DNA of 64,000 nucleotides from a virus (taxonomy: Duplodnaviria; Heunggongvirae; Uroviricota; Caudoviricetes). Each line of letters starts with the position of its first letter. Within the stretch, counting starts at the first letter, position 1. The notes beneath the pieces are model-generated. The model worked only from the letters and a program-made list of their open reading frames with translations, ran no database searches and was not told the origin of the DNA. Positions 7,483 through 60,642 of this stretch are shown one piece after another. The stretch lies in the IMG/VR virus record IMGVR_UViG_2703718815_000003; one strand, 5' to 3'. Made by a program: the position numbers and the translations under genes.

Positions 7483-8073
7483 CTATTTATTATAAACAAA
7501 ACCAATATCTTTCTTGTGAGGCATATCTGCTGCTGAAAAAGCTGCGATCTTCGCGAGTCGATCACATATTTCATTTTCACGATGCCCGGCGTGACCTTTA
7601 ACCCACTTCCAGCGAACATTATGTCGACTTGCGGCCTCATCCAGACGCTTCCACAGATCAACATTCTTTACCGGTTTTTTGTCAGAAGTCATCCATCCAT
7701 TGCGTTTCCACCATTTCATCCACTGTGTCATGCCGTTTTTCAGATACTGGCTATCAGAGTGCAAAATAACGTTGCATGGATATTTCAAACGCTCCAGCCC
7801 GATAAGTGCCCCCATCATCTCCATGCGGTTATTGGTGGTGCTATGAAAACCATCTGAGAACTCGCGTTCCTCACCACGATACTGGAGAACTATACCGTAA
7901 CCGCCCGGGCCACCCGGATTTTTAAGGCAAGAGCCATCACTGAAGATTTTCACGGTTTTAAGCTGGGGATTGAACTCTACGACAGGCGTTGTGGAATTGG
8001 TGCGGGGAGAATTTTTGTTTTTGGCTTTTTTGCGAGTTTTTTCTTGCGATCGGGCTGGTGTCTTCGTCGTCAT
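7483..8073 (-). CDS. rnhA: ribonuclease HI
   Basis: [47 protein letters not shown] motifs; start set at internal ATG 8073 with AGGAG RBS (ORF track extends to 8160). Confidence 0.85.
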
Positions 8074-8658
8074 ATAAACTCCTGAATCAAGCGCCGCGCC
8101 GATTTTTTTTCCTCGCGCGTGCGCACACGCGTGCGTGTTAATAATTATTAAAATAAACAAATTACTTCCCAGAACAGGTTTTTATAAACCTGAACTGAAC
8201 GAACGAAGTGAGTGAAGTTCACCTCGAACGAAGTGAGAGGTTGTCTTTTCAGGTAATACTCTCCCAGGGAGGTGAGTATAAAAATCCCTCACCAACCTGG
8301 TCGTTTCATAACCTGAAAAGTTATGGTCTAAGTCTACTGCCAGCTTAGACTTGGGAAGTTATGGATGACAGCACCCCAGAACCGAGATCTTCCCACACTT
8401 TATGAAGGGGAGTACTGGATTCAACCTCTCGAAACACCCCAGACTCGACAATCATAAAGTGACCCTTGTCTCCGCTCACTTTGGTTCCCCCTTCCCCGAC
8501 ACCTAAACGGCACCAGTTCTACGCTGGTAGTGAGCTTTTTTAAACCTGACGCCAGTGACGCTTACCCCCACCCATCAGGTCGAGTCTCCAGTCTACGACT
8601 GGAAACTATCAGATCTTAGCACTTACAATTCACTTTATGAATAGTTTGTACTTATCTA

Positions 8659-8913
8659 TCATTGTGATTGATTATTTTCTCTACCATGTAGTTGAACATT
8701 CAAGGCAAACACCTCATTGATCAACTCACCTAAAAGCTGTTCAACAAGTTCGCGATGCTCGCCAAGATGCAAGCACTTAATTGCCCATTCGTACAAGTTG
8801 AAAGCCTGCTCACGATCTTTCATCATTTCACGAGCCTGGGCCAGAAAATCGCTCTCTACGAGCGCAACGACATTAGTCGGGTATGACATGTTGGTTTCCT
8901 TAAAGTGGTTCAT
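8659..8913 (-). CDS. hypothetical protein
   Basis: 84-aa ORF. Confidence 0.35.
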   Translation of the reverse strand: MNHFKETNMSYPTNVVALVESDFLAQAREMMKDREQAFNLYEWAIKCLHLGEHRELVEQLLGELINEVFALNVQLHGRENNQSQ

Positions 8914-8994
8914 AAAATCGATTTTAAAGCGTCTGGGAAGGGGTTCTAGTGGATTCTGTAGTGATGTTCAGGTCTGGAGTCTCTGATACAAAAC

Positions 8995-9052
8995 AGCCTG
9001 CTTCCGTATATTAATAATTAATATGTAGTTATTTATATATACAGAAGCAGGC
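8995..9052. repeat. 57-bp palindromic element, copy 1 (cctgcttccgtatat / AT-rich spacer / atatacagaagcagg)
   Basis: 15-bp inverted repeat with one mismatch; near-identical element at 54318..54372. Confidence 0.6.
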
Positions 9053-9074
9053 TAATTACAGACGCCAGAACAAA

Positions 9075-9668
9075 CTAAGCAGCCTTCTTTGATGGTCTTT
9101 TTTTCCTGATCACATTCGCAGGATCATACCCTCCCAGACTTTTCATGACGTCCAAAGGGATCTTGCTTATAGAGTGCCCAGCGTCCTGACAGAATCCTCG
9201 AAAAACAACGAGCATACTGCCACCTGGGTTGATGTTTACTTCTACCTGACCCAGATTGACGTCAGGCTCGACAAACGCTACGCGGCCACCAGACAGAATA
9301 ATCGTCTCATTCGCACACTCTGTTGCACGCTCATACCACTTTGTATCTAGGGATTGAGGAATTAGCATCACTGTTGTAACTCCGCGAGCCTGCTCACGTA
9401 TAGCCGCATCAATCCAGGGGGAGATTTTGGAGTAGGGTGGATTGAGGAAGGCAATTGTACCTGGCTGTCCCCATTCAGATTTCAAAGCATCACGCTCAAC
9501 GCCTATGAAATTAGGCAGCTTTGCATTGTCCTTGTTGCAGGCAACGTCAACATCAAATGTCACTCCAAGATAACGTTGAATGGCAGAAAACAGCCAGTCA
9601 GGTGTTCTCCAGAGGTCACGAAGAGAGTTGTCGCGCTTTCGCTGTTTGATTTTTTCGGCTGCAATCAT
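9075..9668 (-). CDS. DNA N6-adenine methyltransferase, small phage type
   Basis: 197-aa ORF with NPPY catalytic tetrapeptide (AFLNPPYSK) in a small single-domain protein. Confidence 0.65.
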   Translation of the reverse strand: MIAAEKIKQRKRDNSLRDLWRTPDWLFSAIQRYLGVTFDVDVACNKDNAKLPNFIGVERDALKSEWGQPGTIAFLNPPYSKISPWIDAAIREQARGVTTVMLIPQSLDTKWYERATECANETIILSGGRVAFVEPDVNLGQVEVNINPGGSMLVVFRGFCQDAGHSISKIPLDVMKSLGGYDPANVIRKKRPSKKAA

Positions 9669-25022: not shown

Positions 25023-26117
25023 ATGTCCACAAAAAATAAAAAAGGTAAAAATAACAAAGAAGTAGAAGATAATCTCGACAACTTTGAAGAAGGTTCCCTT
25101 GAATTGTACACAGGGGAACTTGTCCCTAATAGCAACAATACAGTCCAACCAATTGCGTTGATGCGGCTGGGATTGTTCGTGCCCACGCTCAAGGGGACAA
25201 AATACAGCAAGCGTAACAAGCCAAATGAGATCGATGCTTCAAAGGAGCTTGTTCAGCTCGAAGTAGCCCGTTCTGAAGGCTATTCCGATATCAAGATAAC
25301 CGGTCCTCGTCTCGACATGGATCATGATTTCAAAACGTGGGTGGGCGTTGTGCGTTCGCTGGCAGAATACGGCGAACCTAACGGTCGTGTCGAGTTAAGC
25401 ATCACGAAATTTGCGAAGTTTTGTGGCTATCCATCGTCACAGATCCGCAAAACACTCCGCGACCGGCTTACAAACAGTCTTTTGAAGATCATGCGTACAA
25501 CTCTGTCTTTCCAGAGAACGTATGAAGAAAAGAACGTCGACGGCTCTAACAAGATCTCGCTTCTGATGGTGCACCTCATCAATAGCGTGGACTACAACGA
25601 GCAGAAAGATACGGTGGTGTTCTATGCAGAACCGAAGCTGGCCGAACTATATCGCTTTGACCATAAGGTTCTTTTGCAGTTAAAGGTTATCAATAAGCTA
25701 CCACGCAAAGAAACAGCACAGGCTCTGTACACCTTCATCGAAAGTCTTCCAACCAAGCCTGCGCCGGTATCGCTTGCTCGATTGCGTGCGCGACTCAATT
25801 TGAGTAGCAGGAATGTCAGCTCGCAGAATCAGACTATACGCAACGGCTTAAAAGCTCTCCAAGATTTGGGTTATCTCGAATACAGCGAGATTAAGCGAGG
25901 GCGGTCGATCTATATCCAGATTCACAGCCGCAATCCAAAACTCAAAGTCGCACCGCCAAAACCTGAAGACATCGAACCCAAAAAACTAGATGAGAAAGCT
26001 GGGGAAATTGATGCCAAACAGAACATTATCAACAAGATAACCGAACTTTCGCAGAATTTGACGCCTGAAAATATCAAGATGATTGAGATCCTTTCCAATA
26101 GTCTCAAACTGCTTTGA
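25023..26117 (+). CDS. repA: iteron-binding replication initiator RepA-like protein
   Basis: only long plus-strand ORF here; bracketed by direct-repeat arrays; start placed at ATG 25023 after last upstream iteron (ORF track starts at 24903 inside the iterons). Confidence 0.65.
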   Translation: MSTKNKKGKNNKEVEDNLDNFEEGSLELYTGELVPNSNNTVQPIALMRLGLFVPTLKGTKYSKRNKPNEIDASKELVQLEVARSEGYSDIKITGPRLDMDHDFKTWVGVVRSLAEYGEPNGRVELSITKFAKFCGYPSSQIRKTLRDRLTNSLLKIMRTTLSFQRTYEEKNVDGSNKISLLMVHLINSVDYNEQKDTVVFYAEPKLAELYRFDHKVLLQLKVINKLPRKETAQALYTFIESLPTKPAPVSLARLRARLNLSSRNVSSQNQTIRNGLKALQDLGYLEYSEIKRGRSIYIQIHSRNPKLKVAPPKPEDIEPKKLDEKAGEIDAKQNIINKITELSQNLTPENIKMIEILSNSLKLL

Positions 26118-26649
26118 TATGCTGTCAGCGGTGAAATGTATGCTATCAGCGGCTATTTTTCTGAAAAGTATGCTGTAAACGGTTAAATATATGCTACCAG
26201 CGGTATAGTGAGATGAACGTATGCTGTGGGCGGTAAATCATCTATCACCACTCAATGCTCTGTCATACCTCCCCAGTGGTTACTAACCTCGAAGAGTGCA
26301 TTCCATATAGGTTTGCGCTCACTAACATTCTATTGCTATTGCGCTGATTGCTTGTAGTGAAAGGCATTTATTGCCTGCTGCTCCCTGATAGAACGTATGC
26401 TGTCAGCGGTGTTTTATTGAGGAATTTTTGTTTGGATATGCTATCAGCGGTAATTAATGGTATATGTCAGACCTTCGTATGCTGCCAGCGGTAATTTTGT
26501 TCTGGTTATACCCATACCGGTACACATTATTCATGCAATGTCTTAAGTATGCTGTCAGCGGTAAAAAATCGAGTAAAGTATGCTGTGAGCGGTGAGATAG
26601 ACTCTCGATATGCTATCAGCGGTAGTTGATTGTGTATGCTGTCAGCGGT
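26118..26649 (+). repeat. iteron arrays downstream of repA (12 direct repeats in two clusters)
   Basis: copies at 26118, 26138, 26169, 26189, 26219 and 26395, 26436, 26477, 26547, 26578, 26608, 26634. Confidence 0.8.
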
Positions 26650-26696
26650 GACGACTATGAAATATGACTGCGGAACGTGCCGCAGTCAGTTTGCAT

Positions 26697-34077: not shown

Positions 34078-34194
34078 GTGTTTCTCCTTGTTGTGATTTG
34101 GCCGATGGCGCTATGCGCGTTGGGCTTTCGTTCATTCGTGGCTCTTTCGAGCTGTTCAATGATAGATCAGTACTTACTTATTATCTATCAAAAA

Positions 34195-46138: not shown

Positions 46139-46225
46139 TGGCGGAGAGTAATGGAATCGAACCATCATCGCTTGCGCAATGGGACGGTTTTCAAGACCGC
46201 TTGAGCACCATGCTCCCTACTCTCC
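46139..46225 (-). tRNA. tRNA-Ser (anticodon UGA), CCA encoded
   Basis: manual fold: acceptor GGAGAGT/ACTCTCC, anticodon loop CTTGAAA, long variable arm, T-loop TTCGATT. Confidence 0.75.
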
Positions 46226-46438
46226 AGTTGTTGTGGTGCCGGGGGCTTCCCGGTGTCCTTTGGCTGGTTATCCACCGTGGACGGAGCCAATAGTCATCAC
46301 AAAGGATCAATATAACCATTTCCCCGCGTGCGCTTAGCCGCATTCACCACAACGAAAAGAGCACTGTATGACGTTTGCACGGACTTACGCTTAAAACAGG
46401 GCAGTCTCGGCGGTTCTCAATGCTCTTTCCTGTTGTGT

Positions 46439-46514
46439 TGGTGCCGGTTAACGGATTCGAACCGCCGACCATTCGCTTACAAGGCGACTGCTCTACCAAC
46501 TGAGCTAAACCGGC
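46439..46514 (-). tRNA. tRNA-Thr (anticodon UGU), CCA encoded
   Basis: manual fold: acceptor GCCGGTT/AACCGGC, D-arm GCTCAGTTGGTAGAGC, anticodon loop CTTGTAA, T-loop TTCGAAT. Confidence 0.75.
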
Positions 46515-46518
46515 AATT

Positions 46519-46605
46519 TGGTGGGGAGTGATGGAGTCGAACCACCCGAGTCGCAATGACAGTAGATTTACAGTCTACACCGCTACCTCTACGGACTAAC
46601 TCCCC
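46519..46605 (-). tRNA. tRNA-Tyr (anticodon GUA), CCA encoded
   Basis: manual fold: acceptor GGGGAGT/ACTCCCC, anticodon stem GTAGA/TCTAC with loop CTGTAAA, long variable arm. Confidence 0.75.
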
Positions 46606-46610
46606 TAAAT

Positions 46611-46685
46611 TGGCGATGGTGGGTGGATTCGAACCACCGACCAGTTGGTTAACAGCCAACTGCTCTACCGCTGAGCTACACCATC
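46611..46685 (-). tRNA. tRNA-Asn (anticodon GUU), CCA encoded
   Basis: manual fold: acceptor GATGGTG/CACCATC, anticodon stem GTTGG/CCAAC with loop CTGTTAA, T-loop TTCGAAT. Confidence 0.75.
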
Positions 46686-49913: not shown

Positions 49914-49968
49914 AAATAATCTTGTACTTACCTATCGTTATTTGCGTAAAAAACGACGCGCGGAGAGA

Positions 49969-59740: not shown

Positions 59741-59802
59741 GAATCGTCAAATCGGGATGGCGGTTTTATATCATAAAACGCCCACACTTGGTAGGTAAGT
59801 AC

Positions 59803-60642
59803 TTACACATGAGCGCCGTAAATTGCCCCAACTTTAGTCCAAGTTGGAGCATTACCAGTAACAGCTTTACCAGCTGCTCCGCCGTTATATTCTGTACCGT
59901 TACCTTGAGTATTACATCTTCCTCCAGCAGCACCGACATTACCACCCGAACCGCCTGTATATGCACTAAGAGACCCCTCACCAACAGATCCTTTACCAGG
60001 AGCGGAAATAGTACCAGCAGTTGCACCGGAACTCATATGAGAGGAAGACCCACCAGCACCGAATGGGCGACCACCGCCACCACCAAATATTAGTTTACCC
60101 CTGTTACCGCCGCCACCGCCGCCGCCACCTCCAGCGATTGCACCATTATTCGTAATACGCAAGCGTGTACCGATGCCATTATTAATTGCGTTACCACCAG
60201 CAGCACCGGCAGCGTTACTACCACCATTGCCACCGCGTCCATAGACAGTCACACCTGCGTTGATTACAAGGCTGATATAAGAGTTGGTAAGTGAACTCGG
60301 GAAATCTAAACATGGCACGCCGCTACTGGACGACACCAGATCCCCTGTAATGGTAACAACGACTGGCGTCGCCCCCTGGGATTTTAAATAGTTGATCAGT
60401 GTGTCTTTGTTGTAGTTATGATTCGCACCGATGCTGTACTGAACTTCTTTAGATCGCCCGGCCATTTGAGACATTGAACCAGCCGCTGGCAGTTGCACCG
60501 CCGTTCGAGCCGCACTCATCCATCTCTGGCCTGTCACACTGACAGCCGAAGACCCAATCCAACCGGGAACACCGACAATTGGCACATCTAATCTCCTTTT
60601 TGATGTGAATATCCTGAATTGGTGAGGGTGGCCCCTCACCAT
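59803..60642 (-). CDS. glycine-rich protein, possible tail-fibre adhesin/accessory protein
   Basis: 279 aa with poly-Gly stretches (GGGGGGGGGN, GGGGGRPFGAGG) immediately downstream of tail fibre gene. Confidence 0.4.
   Translation of the reverse strand: MVRGHPHQFRIFTSKRRLDVPIVGVPGWIGSSAVSVTGQRWMSAARTAVQLPAAGSMSQMAGRSKEVQYSIGANHNYNKDTLINYLKSQGATPVVVTITGDLVSSSSGVPCLDFPSSLTNSYISLVINAGVTVYGRGGNGGSNAAGAAGGNAINNGIGTRLRITNNGAIAGGGGGGGGGNRGKLIFGGGGGRPFGAGGSSSHMSSGATAGTISAPGKGSVGEGSLSAYTGGSGGNVGAAGGRCNTQGNGTEYNGGAAGKAVTGNAPTWTKVGAIYGAHV

Follow-up and report, generated by a model that had tools for sequence, protein, structure and literature searches.

The 64-kb stretch of DNA analysed here (referred to as the window) represents an SSU5/pHCM2-like phage-plasmid and contains six ORF-free gaps of at least 250 bp (70-aa cut-off). 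One of these lies between rnhA and a small gene in the replication and nucleotide-metabolism module. A preliminary description had noted an ORF-free, hairpin-dense interval here and had offered two readings, a structured non-coding RNA or a cis-acting site such as a lytic origin or packaging signal; it gave neither the strand (minus) nor the extent (about 8163-8607) of the element. According to the ORF list, only ORFs of 25-46 aa are located inside 8161-8658, and several ORFs of 20-46 aa are present in the sequence of the interval in the window. No ORF of at least 15 aa remains intact across lineages: each is frameshifted, interrupted or without a start in at least one lineage, and the lineage groups are separated by indels of 1, 2 and 7 nt. 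The interval is without a conserved ORF.

Comparative folding of 28 non-redundant homologues with RNAalifold indicates that the interval probably encodes a large, intricately folded RNA that was previously unannotated. The minus-strand consensus has an energy of -103.2 kcal/mol (covariation term -10.8, 100 pairs), the plus-strand consensus one of -63.7 kcal/mol (covariation term -4.5); in single-sequence folding, both strands are more stable than their dinucleotide shuffles (z = -3.5 for the plus strand and -3.95 for the minus strand). Altogether, 99.3% of 2798 cells are paired. Compensatory changes are found at 32 of the 100 pairs, whereas the shuffles gave 16 +/- 2.5 such pairs and the slid controls 2-5; most of them stem from one deep split (four Cronobacter-like sequences), with few independent events per pair. 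The observed values were reached by none of 500 shuffles, and the covariation score is 0.240 (controls at most 0.061). Compensations independent of the Cronobacter split occur at pairs 269:291 (CG21/UA7), 82:142 (UA16/CG7/UG5) and 34:68 (CG19/GC4/UA4).

The strand was deduced from the wobble pairs: 338 G-U cells stand against 6 A-C cells. As the minus strand was the one used to predict the structure, this test involves some circularity. Many G-U/G-C/A-U alternations become A-C mismatches on the plus strand; pair 268:292 (GU13/GC8/AU7) is mismatched if read there, and a U-G pair in the 5' hairpin corresponds to a C-A mismatch. The sense of the RNA is also that of all neighbouring genes, and its base counts are 123 G and 91 C. 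Covariation, strand-specific G-U pairs, a conserved promoter and the lack of a conserved ORF strongly support the first of the two earlier readings, and we put the probability of a functional structured RNA on the minus strand at roughly 90%. Comparative alignment revealed a structure conserved in the 28 homologues and no conserved protein gene.

Coordinates of the structured RNA, its parts and its neighbours in the window
Feature	Positions	Strand	Remarks
rnhA	7483-8073	-	RNase HI, 196 aa, basic N-terminal extension; Pfam RNase_H E=8.6e-45; phrog_531
Alternating purine-pyrimidine GC tract with conserved CGCGCGAGG, then A8 run	8100-8135	-	tract length polymorphic
AT-rich spacer	8136-8162	-	95% A+T at 8140-8159; sequence and length (27-50 nt) vary between lineages
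Structured RNA core	8163-8607	-	about 445 nt, read 8607 to 8163; conserved, covarying, ORF-free
3' hairpin CAGGUUUAUAAAAACCUG	8176-8193	-	stem sequence varies between lineages, pairing kept
Inverted repeat cAGGTTTTTATAAACCTg	8176-8193		
Hairpin H17, UGAACU-..UCACUUCGUUCG..-AGUUCA	8191-8221	-	loop carries second direct-repeat copy; 3/6 pairs compensatory
Hairpin H16, CCUC-UCACUUCGUUC-GAGG	8222-8240	-	loop carries one direct-repeat copy
Central multi-helix domain	8251-8466	-	closing helix H7 encloses H8-H10, H11/H12, H13, H14, H15; six-way junction
Inverted repeat GTCTAAG...CTTAGAC	8327-8350		
Inverted repeat GGGAAG...CTTCCC	8352-8358 and 8389-8395		
Branched domain H3-H6	8475-8534	-	H3: 3/6 pairs compensatory
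Helix H2, 13 pairs, with conserved GAUGGGUGGRGG	8544-8580	-	100% of cells paired, 4 pairs compensatory
5' terminal hairpin, AGUUUCCAGUC-GUA-GACUGGAGACU	8583-8607	-	predicted start about 8605-8607 at hairpin base
Inverted repeat CCAGTC-tac-GACTGG	inside 8583-8607		
Extended -10, TGcTAAGAT (-10 at 8613-8618)	8613-8621	-	TAnnnT in 44/47 distinct upstream sequences
-35-like hexamer TTCATA	8636-8641	-	TTnAnn exactly 17 nt before -10 in 44/47 distinct upstream sequences
GATAGATAAGTAC box (GATAGrTAAGTAC), partly palindromic	8642-8662	-	overlaps small-gene stop codon, abuts -35; candidate operator
Small gene	8659-8889	-	76-aa acidic three-helix protein, phrog_5343; upstream, right neighbour

The predicted fold comprises about 16-18 helices. 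Every inverted repeat listed in the preliminary description is present and belongs to helices with covariation support in the 28 homologues. The 5' hairpin begins 5-6 nt past the -10 element in every lineage (-4 to -16 kcal/mol); its sequence is lineage-specific and its pairing is kept. The H3-H6 domain contains the purine tract GGGGAAGGGGGAACC (8483-8497), which is conserved, mostly unpaired and unique in the window. Compensatory pairs of the central domain are found in H7 (2/3), H8 (3/9), H11 (3/7) and H13 (5/10); with a covariance model built for the domain, the window reaches 273 bits. H16 is the most conserved segment and is invariant, the Cronobacter group included, except for one loop base. 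The loop UCACUUCGUUC is displayed by both neighbouring hairpins, H16 and H17, and the H17 loop UCACAUUCGUUCG is retained in the Cronobacter group. The direct repeat CGAACGAAGTGAG of the preliminary description is indeed present, at 8200-8212 and 8225-8237, one base away from the positions reported. The 3' hairpin is directly followed by a conserved UUCUGGGAAGUAA (8163-8175); it is not a canonical terminator, because an adjacent U-tract is missing.

An unrelated viral contig also contains the 23-nt H16 motif, within an ORF that resembles a replication organiser. A genome-wide scan for this motif returned mostly an unrelated short motif family.

Upstream of the RNA we identified a predicted sigma-70-type promoter with an extended -10 element, which, judged by consensus and conservation, would be the RNA's own promoter. 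Its overall pattern is TTnAnn-17 nt-TGnTAnnAT. Of the 47 distinct upstream sequences, 35 have the TG at -15/-14, and every lineage, also the Cronobacter group, is represented among them; the spacer between -35 and -10, 17 nt long in 44 of the 47, varies in sequence. The predicted promoter is located 18 nt past the stop codon of the small gene and would fire directly into the 5' hairpin; a generic promoter and terminator scan scored it below threshold (8/12 matches) and detected no terminator. The box next to the -35 element is a candidate operator. Its core RTAAGTAC occurs eight times in the window (2.35 expected), four of these copies being located in short gaps right after stop codons, and in SSU5 the box is a perfect palindrome, GGTAAGTACTTACC.

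On its other side the RNA is followed by rnhA, which starts with ATG at 8073 on the same strand. For the GC tract and A8 run, folding gives a GC hairpin whose loop is A-rich, about 10 nt ahead of the Shine-Dalgarno sequence of rnhA. The A8 run (8103-8110), which is preceded by CGCGCGAGG, is about 500 nt away from the predicted start near 8606. CGCGCGAG and the A-rich sequence are retained in all lineages, even in those without rnhA. That they are kept where rnhA is replaced suggests that the functional unit reaches toward the following sequence. Between the core and the rnhA start, a hairpin followed by a U-tract is absent in most lineages, and one Cronobacter plasmid, L003, has a terminator some 190 nt beyond. 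If rnhA had a promoter of its own in the AT-rich spacer, which is conceivable, the RNA would constitute a discrete gene.

The RNA is more conserved than the adjacent protein genes. The core (8163-8583) is 94.8% identical in SSU5, 94.8% in pHCM2 and 89.8% in Klebsiella, whereas identity to the same relatives is only 72-78% for rnhA and the small gene on either side. No other non-coding segment of the replication module is conserved as well as this RNA, and it is annotated by no pipeline; a literature search found nothing on the locus. A blastn search (word size 11) with the region against the 72,556 plasmids of PLSDB yielded 687 records; the matches listed are mostly about 100-125 kb long and SSU5/pHCM2-like, and IncFIB where replicon-typed. 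The element is present in 232 of 5426 complete E. coli genomes, in which it occurs at only two chromosomal places and otherwise as full-length copies on phage-plasmids. It is also found in Salmonella Typhi pHCM2 and in many Klebsiella plasmids. Where rnhA is replaced by betT (p3804_3) the RNA is 95% conserved, and in the Cronobacter group, a 60%-identical lineage, genes other than rnhA occupy the downstream position. Since the RNA is kept without rnhA, it does not depend on regulating rnhA specifically.

The upstream 76-aa gene is linked to the structured RNA in every case. An AlphaFold model of its product (pLDDT 79) is three-helical; a fold search of the PDB gave no match better than E=7, and no Pfam family matched. 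A Rop-like or RNA-binding role was considered and rejected, as the fold and Pfam searches were uninformative.

In Klebsiella relatives, the corresponding slot ahead of RNase H is occupied by another RNA, unrelated in sequence but structured to the same degree, which we call type B, the RNA described above being type A. The type B RNA has its own promoter, a 5' hairpin and a terminator or attenuator, and purine-rich GCGAAAC repeats lie between it and RNase H. Linkage to an RNase H gene is thus seen in two RNA types. Neither a 28-sequence nhmmer profile nor the covariance model of the central domain (R1) revealed similarity of type A to the type B loci or to Moellerella. The Klebsiella plasmid pCRKP18622-1 (type B) carries an Ant- or Rha-type gene further down on the same strand, as does SSU5, in which ant is located three genes downstream of the RNA. 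An ant gene is absent downstream in this E. coli window, where TerB and DUF3927 are found instead, and an immI-like leader RNA controlling an anti-repressor was therefore rejected.

Known RNA classes were searched with the 4227 covariance models of Rfam 15 at gathering thresholds. No family matched the interval, and a permissive scan of 7900-9100 gave only chance-level miRNA-type matches far below threshold; in the whole window, only three tRNAs (46.4-46.7 kb) scored above threshold. The type B RNA and the Cronobacter homologue were likewise without an Rfam match. ARAGORN and Rfam found no tRNA, tmRNA or group I or II intron at the interval, ARAGORN reporting only a distant tRNA cluster. The covariance model of the c4/CI-type immunity RNA (RF01695) did not match. 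As a c4-type partner of the duplicated motif, AAAGUGAG (8475-8482) was rejected: it belongs to helix H3, and the Cronobacter group lacks the complementarity.

What the RNA does can be stated only tentatively. The reading we lean towards is a cis-acting leader or scaffold RNA at the head of the rnhA operon. It would act in cis, leading a transcript that continues into rnhA and the genes behind it; the fold and the duplicated loop motif would recruit a protein or RNA partner, which would set the fate of the downstream transcript through read-through or attenuation, processing, or translation. The promoter would probably be under phage control through the adjacent GATAGrTAAGTAC box. Against a cis-acting leader speak the size of 445 nt and about 16 helices, which would suit a ribonucleoprotein RNA acting in trans or a role of the RNA II type better, and the persistence of the RNA where rnhA is replaced; to our knowledge, no known bacterial cis-regulatory leader matches it in size and complexity. 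Somewhat less probable is a large structured RNA that acts away from its own transcript, as a ribonucleoprotein scaffold, decoy or ribozyme-like RNA. Such an RNA would arise from its own promoter or by cleavage of the leader, be stabilised by the 5' hairpin, and have a phage or host partner. In size, number of helices, multi-way junction and unpaired segments that are nearly invariant, the element is like orphan large non-coding RNAs and not like leaders, the terminal 5' hairpin is common to all lineages, the RNA is kept at 95% identity despite a different downstream gene, and the duplicated loop motif resembles a docking site; the Klebsiella analogue has a canonical terminator and is therefore a discrete RNA. 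However, type A has a predicted promoter of its own but no intrinsic terminator or defined 3' end, the conserved loops and the G-tract lack a complementary target in the 64-kb window, and the matches in E. coli genomes are only full-length copies of the element. Action in trans is further disfavoured by the missing Rfam family and by the linked 76-aa protein, which as a partner is acidic and without an informative fold match.

The layout of the locus can also be compared with that of ColE1, in which the RNA II promoter lies about 500-555 nt before the RNA-to-DNA switch in an A-run after GC-rich sequence. An RNA II-like pre-primer of a transcription-primed (R-loop) origin for lytic or run-away replication is, in our view, unlikely. 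The RNA would hybridise to its template at the GC-rich/A8 region about 500 nt past the start, the RNase HI encoded downstream would cut the hybridised RNA, and DNA polymerase would extend it. Such an RNase H-processed pre-primer might switch SSU5/pHCM2 phage-plasmids from low-copy RepA/iteron to run-away replication, and the Klebsiella type B RNA would then be a second specificity or incompatibility type. Scale and layout would agree with ColE1/pMB1 RNA II: both are plasmid-borne RNAs of Enterobacteriaceae, about 450-550 nt long, with many conserved stem-loops, a constitutive-type promoter of their own (here a predicted one), no terminator before the downstream functional site (here a putative one), and a GC-rich segment with an A-run about 500 nt from the start, which in the present RNA is a predicted start. 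In line with this are the G-clusters GGGUGGGGG and GGGGAAGGGGG in the 5' third of the RNA, the 95% A+T stretch followed by GC tract and homopurine run, the GCGAAAC repeats after the Klebsiella analogue, the RNase H linkage of both types and the location in a replication module whose known plasmid origin is elsewhere. RNA I/RNA II specificity determinants are near-identical within a type and dissimilar between types, as are the RNAs here. Nevertheless, there is no sequence or covariance-model similarity to RNA II, no Rop and no antisense RNA I-like gene (no RF00106 match at E<=10), nor a conserved plus-strand promoter or terminator in 8480-8620. Among the PLSDB matches listed are only large plasmids and no ColE1-type plasmid; the replicon that carries the RNA is a phage-plasmid of 110 kb whose IncFIB RepA/iteron origin is located elsewhere. 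GC-skew is unchanged at the site, the G-runs of H2 are taken up by base pairs of a helix that covariation supports, and the RNA persists where the phage rnhA is lost. RNase H is linked to the RNA by genetic adjacency, whereas in ColE1 it is a biochemical requirement; since RNase HI is expected in any phage replication module for Okazaki primer removal, adjacency is weak evidence, and priming here is putative. A site acting as DNA is very improbable, be it an origin or pac site bound by protein in double-stranded form or a structured signal in single-stranded DNA for primosome assembly or single-strand initiation, although nucleotide conservation is very high, the hairpins would form in single-stranded DNA too with G-T wobble tolerated, an AT-rich and a Z-DNA-prone tract are adjacent, and the H16 motif recurs in the replication-organiser-like ORF. 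Compensatory changes keep pairing over about 16 helices, which double-stranded binding sites do not need, the pairs are asymmetric between the strands and the conserved promoter points into the element. The lytic origin or packaging signal proposed earlier found no positive support: there is no DnaA box with up to one mismatch in 7500-9300, the only iteron-like repeat in the interval is the two-copy 13-mer seated in two RNA hairpin loops, and neither GATC clustering nor a GC-skew inflection is seen at the element. The plasmid's iteron origin is an array of at least 11 iterons at 26.1-26.7 kb (26116-26664); iterons adjoin repA, which in a near-identical plasmid is annotated about 18 kb from the RNA element. 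Hardly credible is that small proteins or a decaying pseudogene, with no function at the RNA level, account for the interval. The short ORFs in the window and the hypothetical proteins annotated at the locus in the phage record Cyrano would fit; however, each ORF of at least 15 aa is broken in some lineage, substitutions track base-pairing and not codon positions, and conservation above that of real genes is the opposite of decay.

Compared with other RNAs, the element shares with GOLLD, ROOL, OLE and raiA a length of several hundred nucleotides, many covarying helices, multi-way junctions and a mobile element or phage context. It differs from them in that no covariance model matches, it is not near tRNA genes and has no terminator, and it is found in Enterobacteriaceae phage-plasmids, whereas those RNAs occur in Firmicutes or other prophages. 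Like the P1/P7 c4, P4 CI and N15 CB-dependent RNAs, it heads an operon, has a probably repressor-controlled promoter and a duplicated short motif, and shows type-specific replacement between related elements; the Ant/Rha-type gene downstream is shared by SSU5 and pCRKP18622-1 and not by this window. The c4-type RNAs are only about 70-90 nt long, and the duplicated motif has no conserved complementary partner here. With HK022 put and EAR the element would have in common a cis-acting folded RNA after a phage promoter that could modify downstream transcription, and paired similar hairpins; put and EAR are 70-120 nt long, match neither in sequence nor in structure, and no downstream terminators to overcome were identified here. 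Few large bacterial RNAs have more than 15 covarying helices, and those that do have repeatedly pointed to sophisticated biochemistry. Members of this phage-plasmid family, which is common in clinical Enterobacteriaceae, have been reported to carry resistance genes. The RNA, its promoter and its Klebsiella counterpart offer a testable handle on control of the early/replication operon and on the switch of the phage-plasmid from plasmid to lytic replication.

Within the RNA, a long-range pairing of ACUUCCCA with UGGGAAGU that mimics a terminator was rejected, as it is not conserved in the Cronobacter group. By eye, a possible pseudoknot between the G-tract at 8483-8497 and UCCCCUUC (8405-8412) was noted, with 7 bp in the main group and five of the seven in the Cronobacter group.

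A region without ORFs of 60 aa or more had been described at 8160-8650; within the interval 8161-8658 the ORFs measure just 25-46 aa, and the window has six ORF-free gaps of at least 250 bp, this one included. All four inverted repeats of the preliminary description were found, as was its 13-nt direct repeat, which lies at 8200 and 8225, one base from where it had been placed. On either strand the interval has a more stable fold than shuffled sequences do (z = -3.5 and -3.95). The alignment of 28 homologues revealed a conserved structure on the minus strand, here called the element (approximately 445 nt, 8163-8607). Of the two interpretations offered earlier, the structured RNA is upheld by minus-strand covariation, whereas the cis-acting site, such as a lytic origin or packaging signal, has no positive support; the element is not a classical origin, since iteron array, DnaA boxes, GATC clustering and skew inflection are all lacking at it. 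Small conserved ORFs, also envisaged there, were not found: every ORF of at least 15 aa, on either strand, is broken in some lineage. The lineage groups differ in the element by 1-, 2- and 7-nt indels.

RNAalifold was run on each strand of the 28 non-redundant homologues. The plus-strand consensus has an energy of -63.7 kcal/mol with a covariation term of -4.5, and 16 of its 81 pairs show compensatory changes; for the minus-strand consensus the energy is -103.2 kcal/mol, the covariation term is -10.8, and compensatory changes occur in 32 of 100 pairs. In the minus-strand structure 99.3% of 2798 cells are paired versus 94.1 +/- 0.2% in shuffles, 32 pairs are changed on both sides versus 16 +/- 2.5, and the covariation score is 0.240 versus 0.135; 0 of 500 shuffles matched the observed paired-cell share, double-change count or covariation score. 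When the 3′ partners were slid by 1-3 columns, 32-49% of the cells paired and 2-5 compensatory pairs were left. The majority of the double changes track the deep split to a divergent Cronobacter group, and the depth of the covariation comes largely from this one clade. Independent of that split are the changes at alignment columns 269:291 (CG in 21 sequences, UA in 7), 82:142 (UA16/CG7/UG5) and 34:68 (CG19/GC4/UA4), as well as 38:64 and 159:220 (two sequences each). The structure contains 338 G-U cells and only 6 A-C cells, a strand test that is partly biased as the structure was predicted on the minus strand; pairs 268:292 (GU13/GC8/AU7), 102:118, 180:199 and 244:253 pass through G-U, which is a mismatch on the plus strand. 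We predict the element to be an RNA of the minus strand because energy, covariation and promoter all agree.

Features of the element, its surroundings and related loci (window coordinates unless a comparison locus, L, is named; H, consensus helix)
Feature	Position	Strand	Remarks
rnhA, left neighbour	7483-8073	minus	true RNase HI, Pfam E=8.6e-45
small gene, right neighbour	8659-8889	minus	76 aa, phrog_5343 (unknown function)
-35 TTCATA	8641-8636	minus	conserved predicted promoter
extended -10 TGcTAAGAT	8621-8613	minus	conserved predicted promoter
5′ terminal hairpin	8607-8583	minus	
H2	8580-8544	minus	13 pairs; carries GAUGGGUGGRGG
A6 linker	directly after H2	minus	
branched domain H3-H6	8534-8475	minus	bears conserved, largely unpaired GGGGAAGGGGGAACC
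H7	8466-8464 with 8253-8251	minus	closes central domain
central domain	inside H7	minus	H8-H10, H11/H12, H13, H14, H15; six-way junction
H16	8240-8222	minus	CCUC-UCACUUCGUUC-GAGG
H17	8221-8191	minus	directly after H16
3′ hairpin	8193-8176	minus	stem sequence varies among lineages, pairing kept
conserved UUCUGGGAAGUAA	ends at 8163	minus	
RTAAGTAC box copies	8648-8655, 34170-34177, 49924-49931, 59795-59806; also 10853, 23647, 61142		
iteron array	26116-26664		at least 11 copies of (G/A)TATGCTGTCAGCGGT, in 579-bp ORF-free gap
type B structured RNA	L087:2760-3200, L088:2760-3205		approximately 430-480 nt; pCAV1099-111 / pCRKP18622-1 type plasmids
H16-core copies	L095, L097, L098, L100, L102-L106, L108-L110; L024:6307-6329		

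The loops of H16 and H17 are the two copies of the direct repeat, and the RNA therefore presents one 11-12-nt loop in two copies. This double-loop arrangement is also retained in the Cronobacter group, as UCACUnCGUUC and UCACAUUCGUUC.

For the promoter, 47 distinct upstream sequences were aligned on the invariant H2. TTnAnn, exactly 17 nt and TAnnnT occur at the same position in 44 of the 47, and 35 of the upstream sequences have TG at -15/-14 (extended -10). Between these fixed hexamers the spacer sequence varies freely, the textbook mark of a genuine promoter. In every lineage a lineage-specific 5′ hairpin with conserved pairing (-4 to -16 kcal/mol) begins 5-6 nt past the -10, so that the predicted start (approximately 8605-8607) is the base of a protective 5′ stem-loop. 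Directly upstream of the promoter, GATAGATAAGTAC overlaps the stop codon of the small gene; the version of this box in SSU5 is a perfect palindrome, GGTAAGTACTTACC. RTAAGTAC is present in 8 copies in the window versus 2.35 expected, four of them in short gaps right after minus-strand stop codons. The box often reads GATAGrTAAGTAC and is partly palindromic, with a perfect GTAAGTACTTAC at 59795; by inference only, it may serve as an operator or as a promoter element specific to the phage. Between dam and the small gene (8990-9055, minus strand) lies a long hairpin, AGCCTGCTTC...(AT-rich top)...GAAGCAGGCT, followed by GTTTTGT, which is probably the dam terminator and is the source of weak miRNA-like Rfam hits.

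Conservation of the element ends at 8163. Beyond it lies an AT-rich spacer (95% A+T at 8140-8159) of variable sequence and length (27-50 nt), then a GC tract, the conserved CGCGCGAGG, an A8 run, the rnhA Shine-Dalgarno sequence and the ATG. The segment 8100-8137 is an alternating purine-pyrimidine (CG/CA)n tract, Z-DNA-prone and length-polymorphic among lineages, ahead of the A8 run; it folds into a GC hairpin, A-rich in its loop, approximately 10 nt ahead of the rnhA Shine-Dalgarno sequence. Because no canonical intrinsic terminator was found between the core and rnhA, the RNA would in most lineages physically head the rnhA transcript, barring processing or another mode of termination. Lineages that lack rnhA still retain CGCGCGAG and the A-rich element.

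The core (8163-8583) is 94.8% identical in SSU5, 94.8% in pHCM2 and 89.8% in a Klebsiella plasmid, and several of its 50-nt windows are 100% identical. In the same alignments rnhA is 72-76%, the small gene 74-78% and other intergenic stretches 46-67% identical. That non-coding DNA is far more conserved than the adjoining genes argues for direct selection on the element at the nucleotide level. The depth for the covariation analysis came from the Cronobacter group, consisting of the Cronobacter sp. JZ38 plasmid (L003) and the IMG/VR contigs L009, L022 and L081; L003 is 60% identical to the window over the core, and in blastn all four have 68-70% identity across an aligned block of 305 nt.

A 586-bp stretch around the element has matches of 88-99% identity in 12 phage records (Escherichia phages CMS-2020a, PhiR41_1 and Cyrano, Salmonella phage SSU5 and several Klebsiella phages) and matches in 687 PLSDB plasmids from Klebsiella, Escherichia, Enterobacter, Salmonella (including S. 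Typhi pHCM2), Citrobacter and Cronobacter. The plasmids are nearly all non-mobilizable and, among the matches listed, mostly approximately 100-125 kb. By these phage and plasmid matches the window is an SSU5/pHCM2-type phage-plasmid, a group that is clinically widespread. Among 5426 complete E. coli genomes 232 carry the element, almost always on a plasmid and always full-length. No record examined has an RNA annotation at the element; annotation pipelines leave the interval blank, extend rnhA into it or make spurious hypothetical proteins. A covariance-model scan, which the preliminary description had put forward, gave no family for the element in Rfam 15, no tRNA or tmRNA was found in it, and it was not found in the searchable literature. 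The element is a new family of large structured RNA, and we class it with the orphan large structured RNAs or the leader RNAs of mobile elements.

The element is linked to the small gene and not to rnhA: its left flank in E. hormaechei p3804_3 is betT, and other genes follow it in the Cronobacter group. p3804_3 (L006:~1440-1500) and a Buttiauxella gaviniae contig (L096:~4750-4840) have a common breakpoint right after the A-run, where rnhA is replaced (..AAAAATCGCCCAT(C/T)GTAATGTCTTCAATGTGCCA); the breakpoint resembles a recombination junction at the 3′ boundary of the element. In Buttiauxella the 5′-terminal third of the RNA is missing, and a metallophosphoesterase-like ORF upstream extends into what remains.

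The small protein has more distant relatives, 44-51% identical, that are encoded on the Klebsiella phage-plasmids pCAV1099-111 and pCRKP18622-1 and on one Moellerella plasmid. Both Klebsiella plasmids keep the order dam, small gene, 570-650-nt gap, RNase H. Neither an nhmmer profile nor a central-domain covariance model detected similarity of this gap to the window RNA (type A). The gap is nevertheless predicted to hold a structured RNA in its own right (type B), with 142 consensus pairs, 96.7% of cells paired in six sequences and 16 compensatory pairs versus 0-3 in slid controls; an Rfam search gave no match. A palindrome related to the RTAAGTAC box (TAAGTAA-N3-TTACTTA) precedes a promoter-like TTTACT-17-TATGAT, the 5′ hairpin follows immediately, and approximately 95-150 nt ahead of the start of RNase H there is a canonical terminator, with purine-rich GCGAAAC repeats behind it. 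The two RNAs are either homologues diverged beyond recognition or analogues; under either reading the small gene/RNase H locus consistently holds a large structured RNA. In Moellerella wisconsensis pNX2019-MW3 (L089), which has no RNase H here, a 113-aa ORF comes after the small gene, and an unannotated gap of 970 nt (L089:3182-4151) separates that ORF from a type I restriction gene; this gap has no similarity to either RNA type.

On the computational evidence, the element is predicted to be a highly structured RNA of the minus strand that is made from its own promoter and would continue into rnhA. Its possible mechanisms are taken here in order of preference. We favour, with a probability of roughly 0.4, a cis-acting leader controlling the downstream replication-module operon: the fold and its duplicated loop would recruit a factor, which would control read-through, processing or translation of that operon. 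Three points support it: a terminator is absent, the conserved downstream CGCGCGAG/A-rich element accompanies the RNA, and a terminator/attenuator is present in the Klebsiella analogue. A trans-acting RNA of the ribonucleoprotein type is possible but less likely; in its favour are the size and complexity of the RNA, the hairpin at its 5′ end and the fact that it persists when the downstream genes differ.

A pre-primer for an R-loop origin, as in ColE1 RNA II, would considerably increase the novelty of the element, and the scale of approximately 500 nt from start to A-run, the G-clusters, the AT-rich segment followed by GC/homopurine segments, the RNase H linkage of both RNA types and an all-or-none similarity pattern typical of specificity determinants are consistent with it. 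It is improbable, however, as neither an RNA I-like antisense gene nor an origin signature is present, the RNA is retained where the phage rnhA is missing, and RNase HI is a usual component of a replication module. There is no clue to a Rop-like role of the small protein, an acidic three-helix protein without an informative structural neighbour. The plasmid-type (IncFIB) origin of the phage-plasmid is the array at 26116-26664; in a near-identical plasmid repA is annotated approximately 18 kb from the element, that is, beside this array. The covariation and ORF analyses make a site acting purely at the DNA level very unlikely, and small proteins or a pseudogene even more so, to the point of being negligible.

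The 20-23-nt core of H16 (8223-8242; CTCGAACGAAGTGAGAGGTT / CTCGAACGNAGTGAGAGGTT in plus orientation) is also found, in isolation, in 13 unrelated genomes of distant phyla (Acidobacteria, Saccharibacteria, Gammaproteobacteria, Bacillota, Daviesbacteria and archaeal MAGs), with approximately four hits expected by chance. The flanks AAGGTT...CTTAT(G) are common to many of them, and a start codon often follows closely, for example that of a uvrA-like and of an anti-sigma gene; the motif occurs, in addition, inside a 442-aa replication-organiser-like ORF of a viral contig. The recurrence is commoner than chance. Elsewhere in the window, four tRNA genes (Ser-TGA, Thr-TGT, Tyr-GTA and Asn-GTT) are clustered at 46139-46685 on the minus strand.
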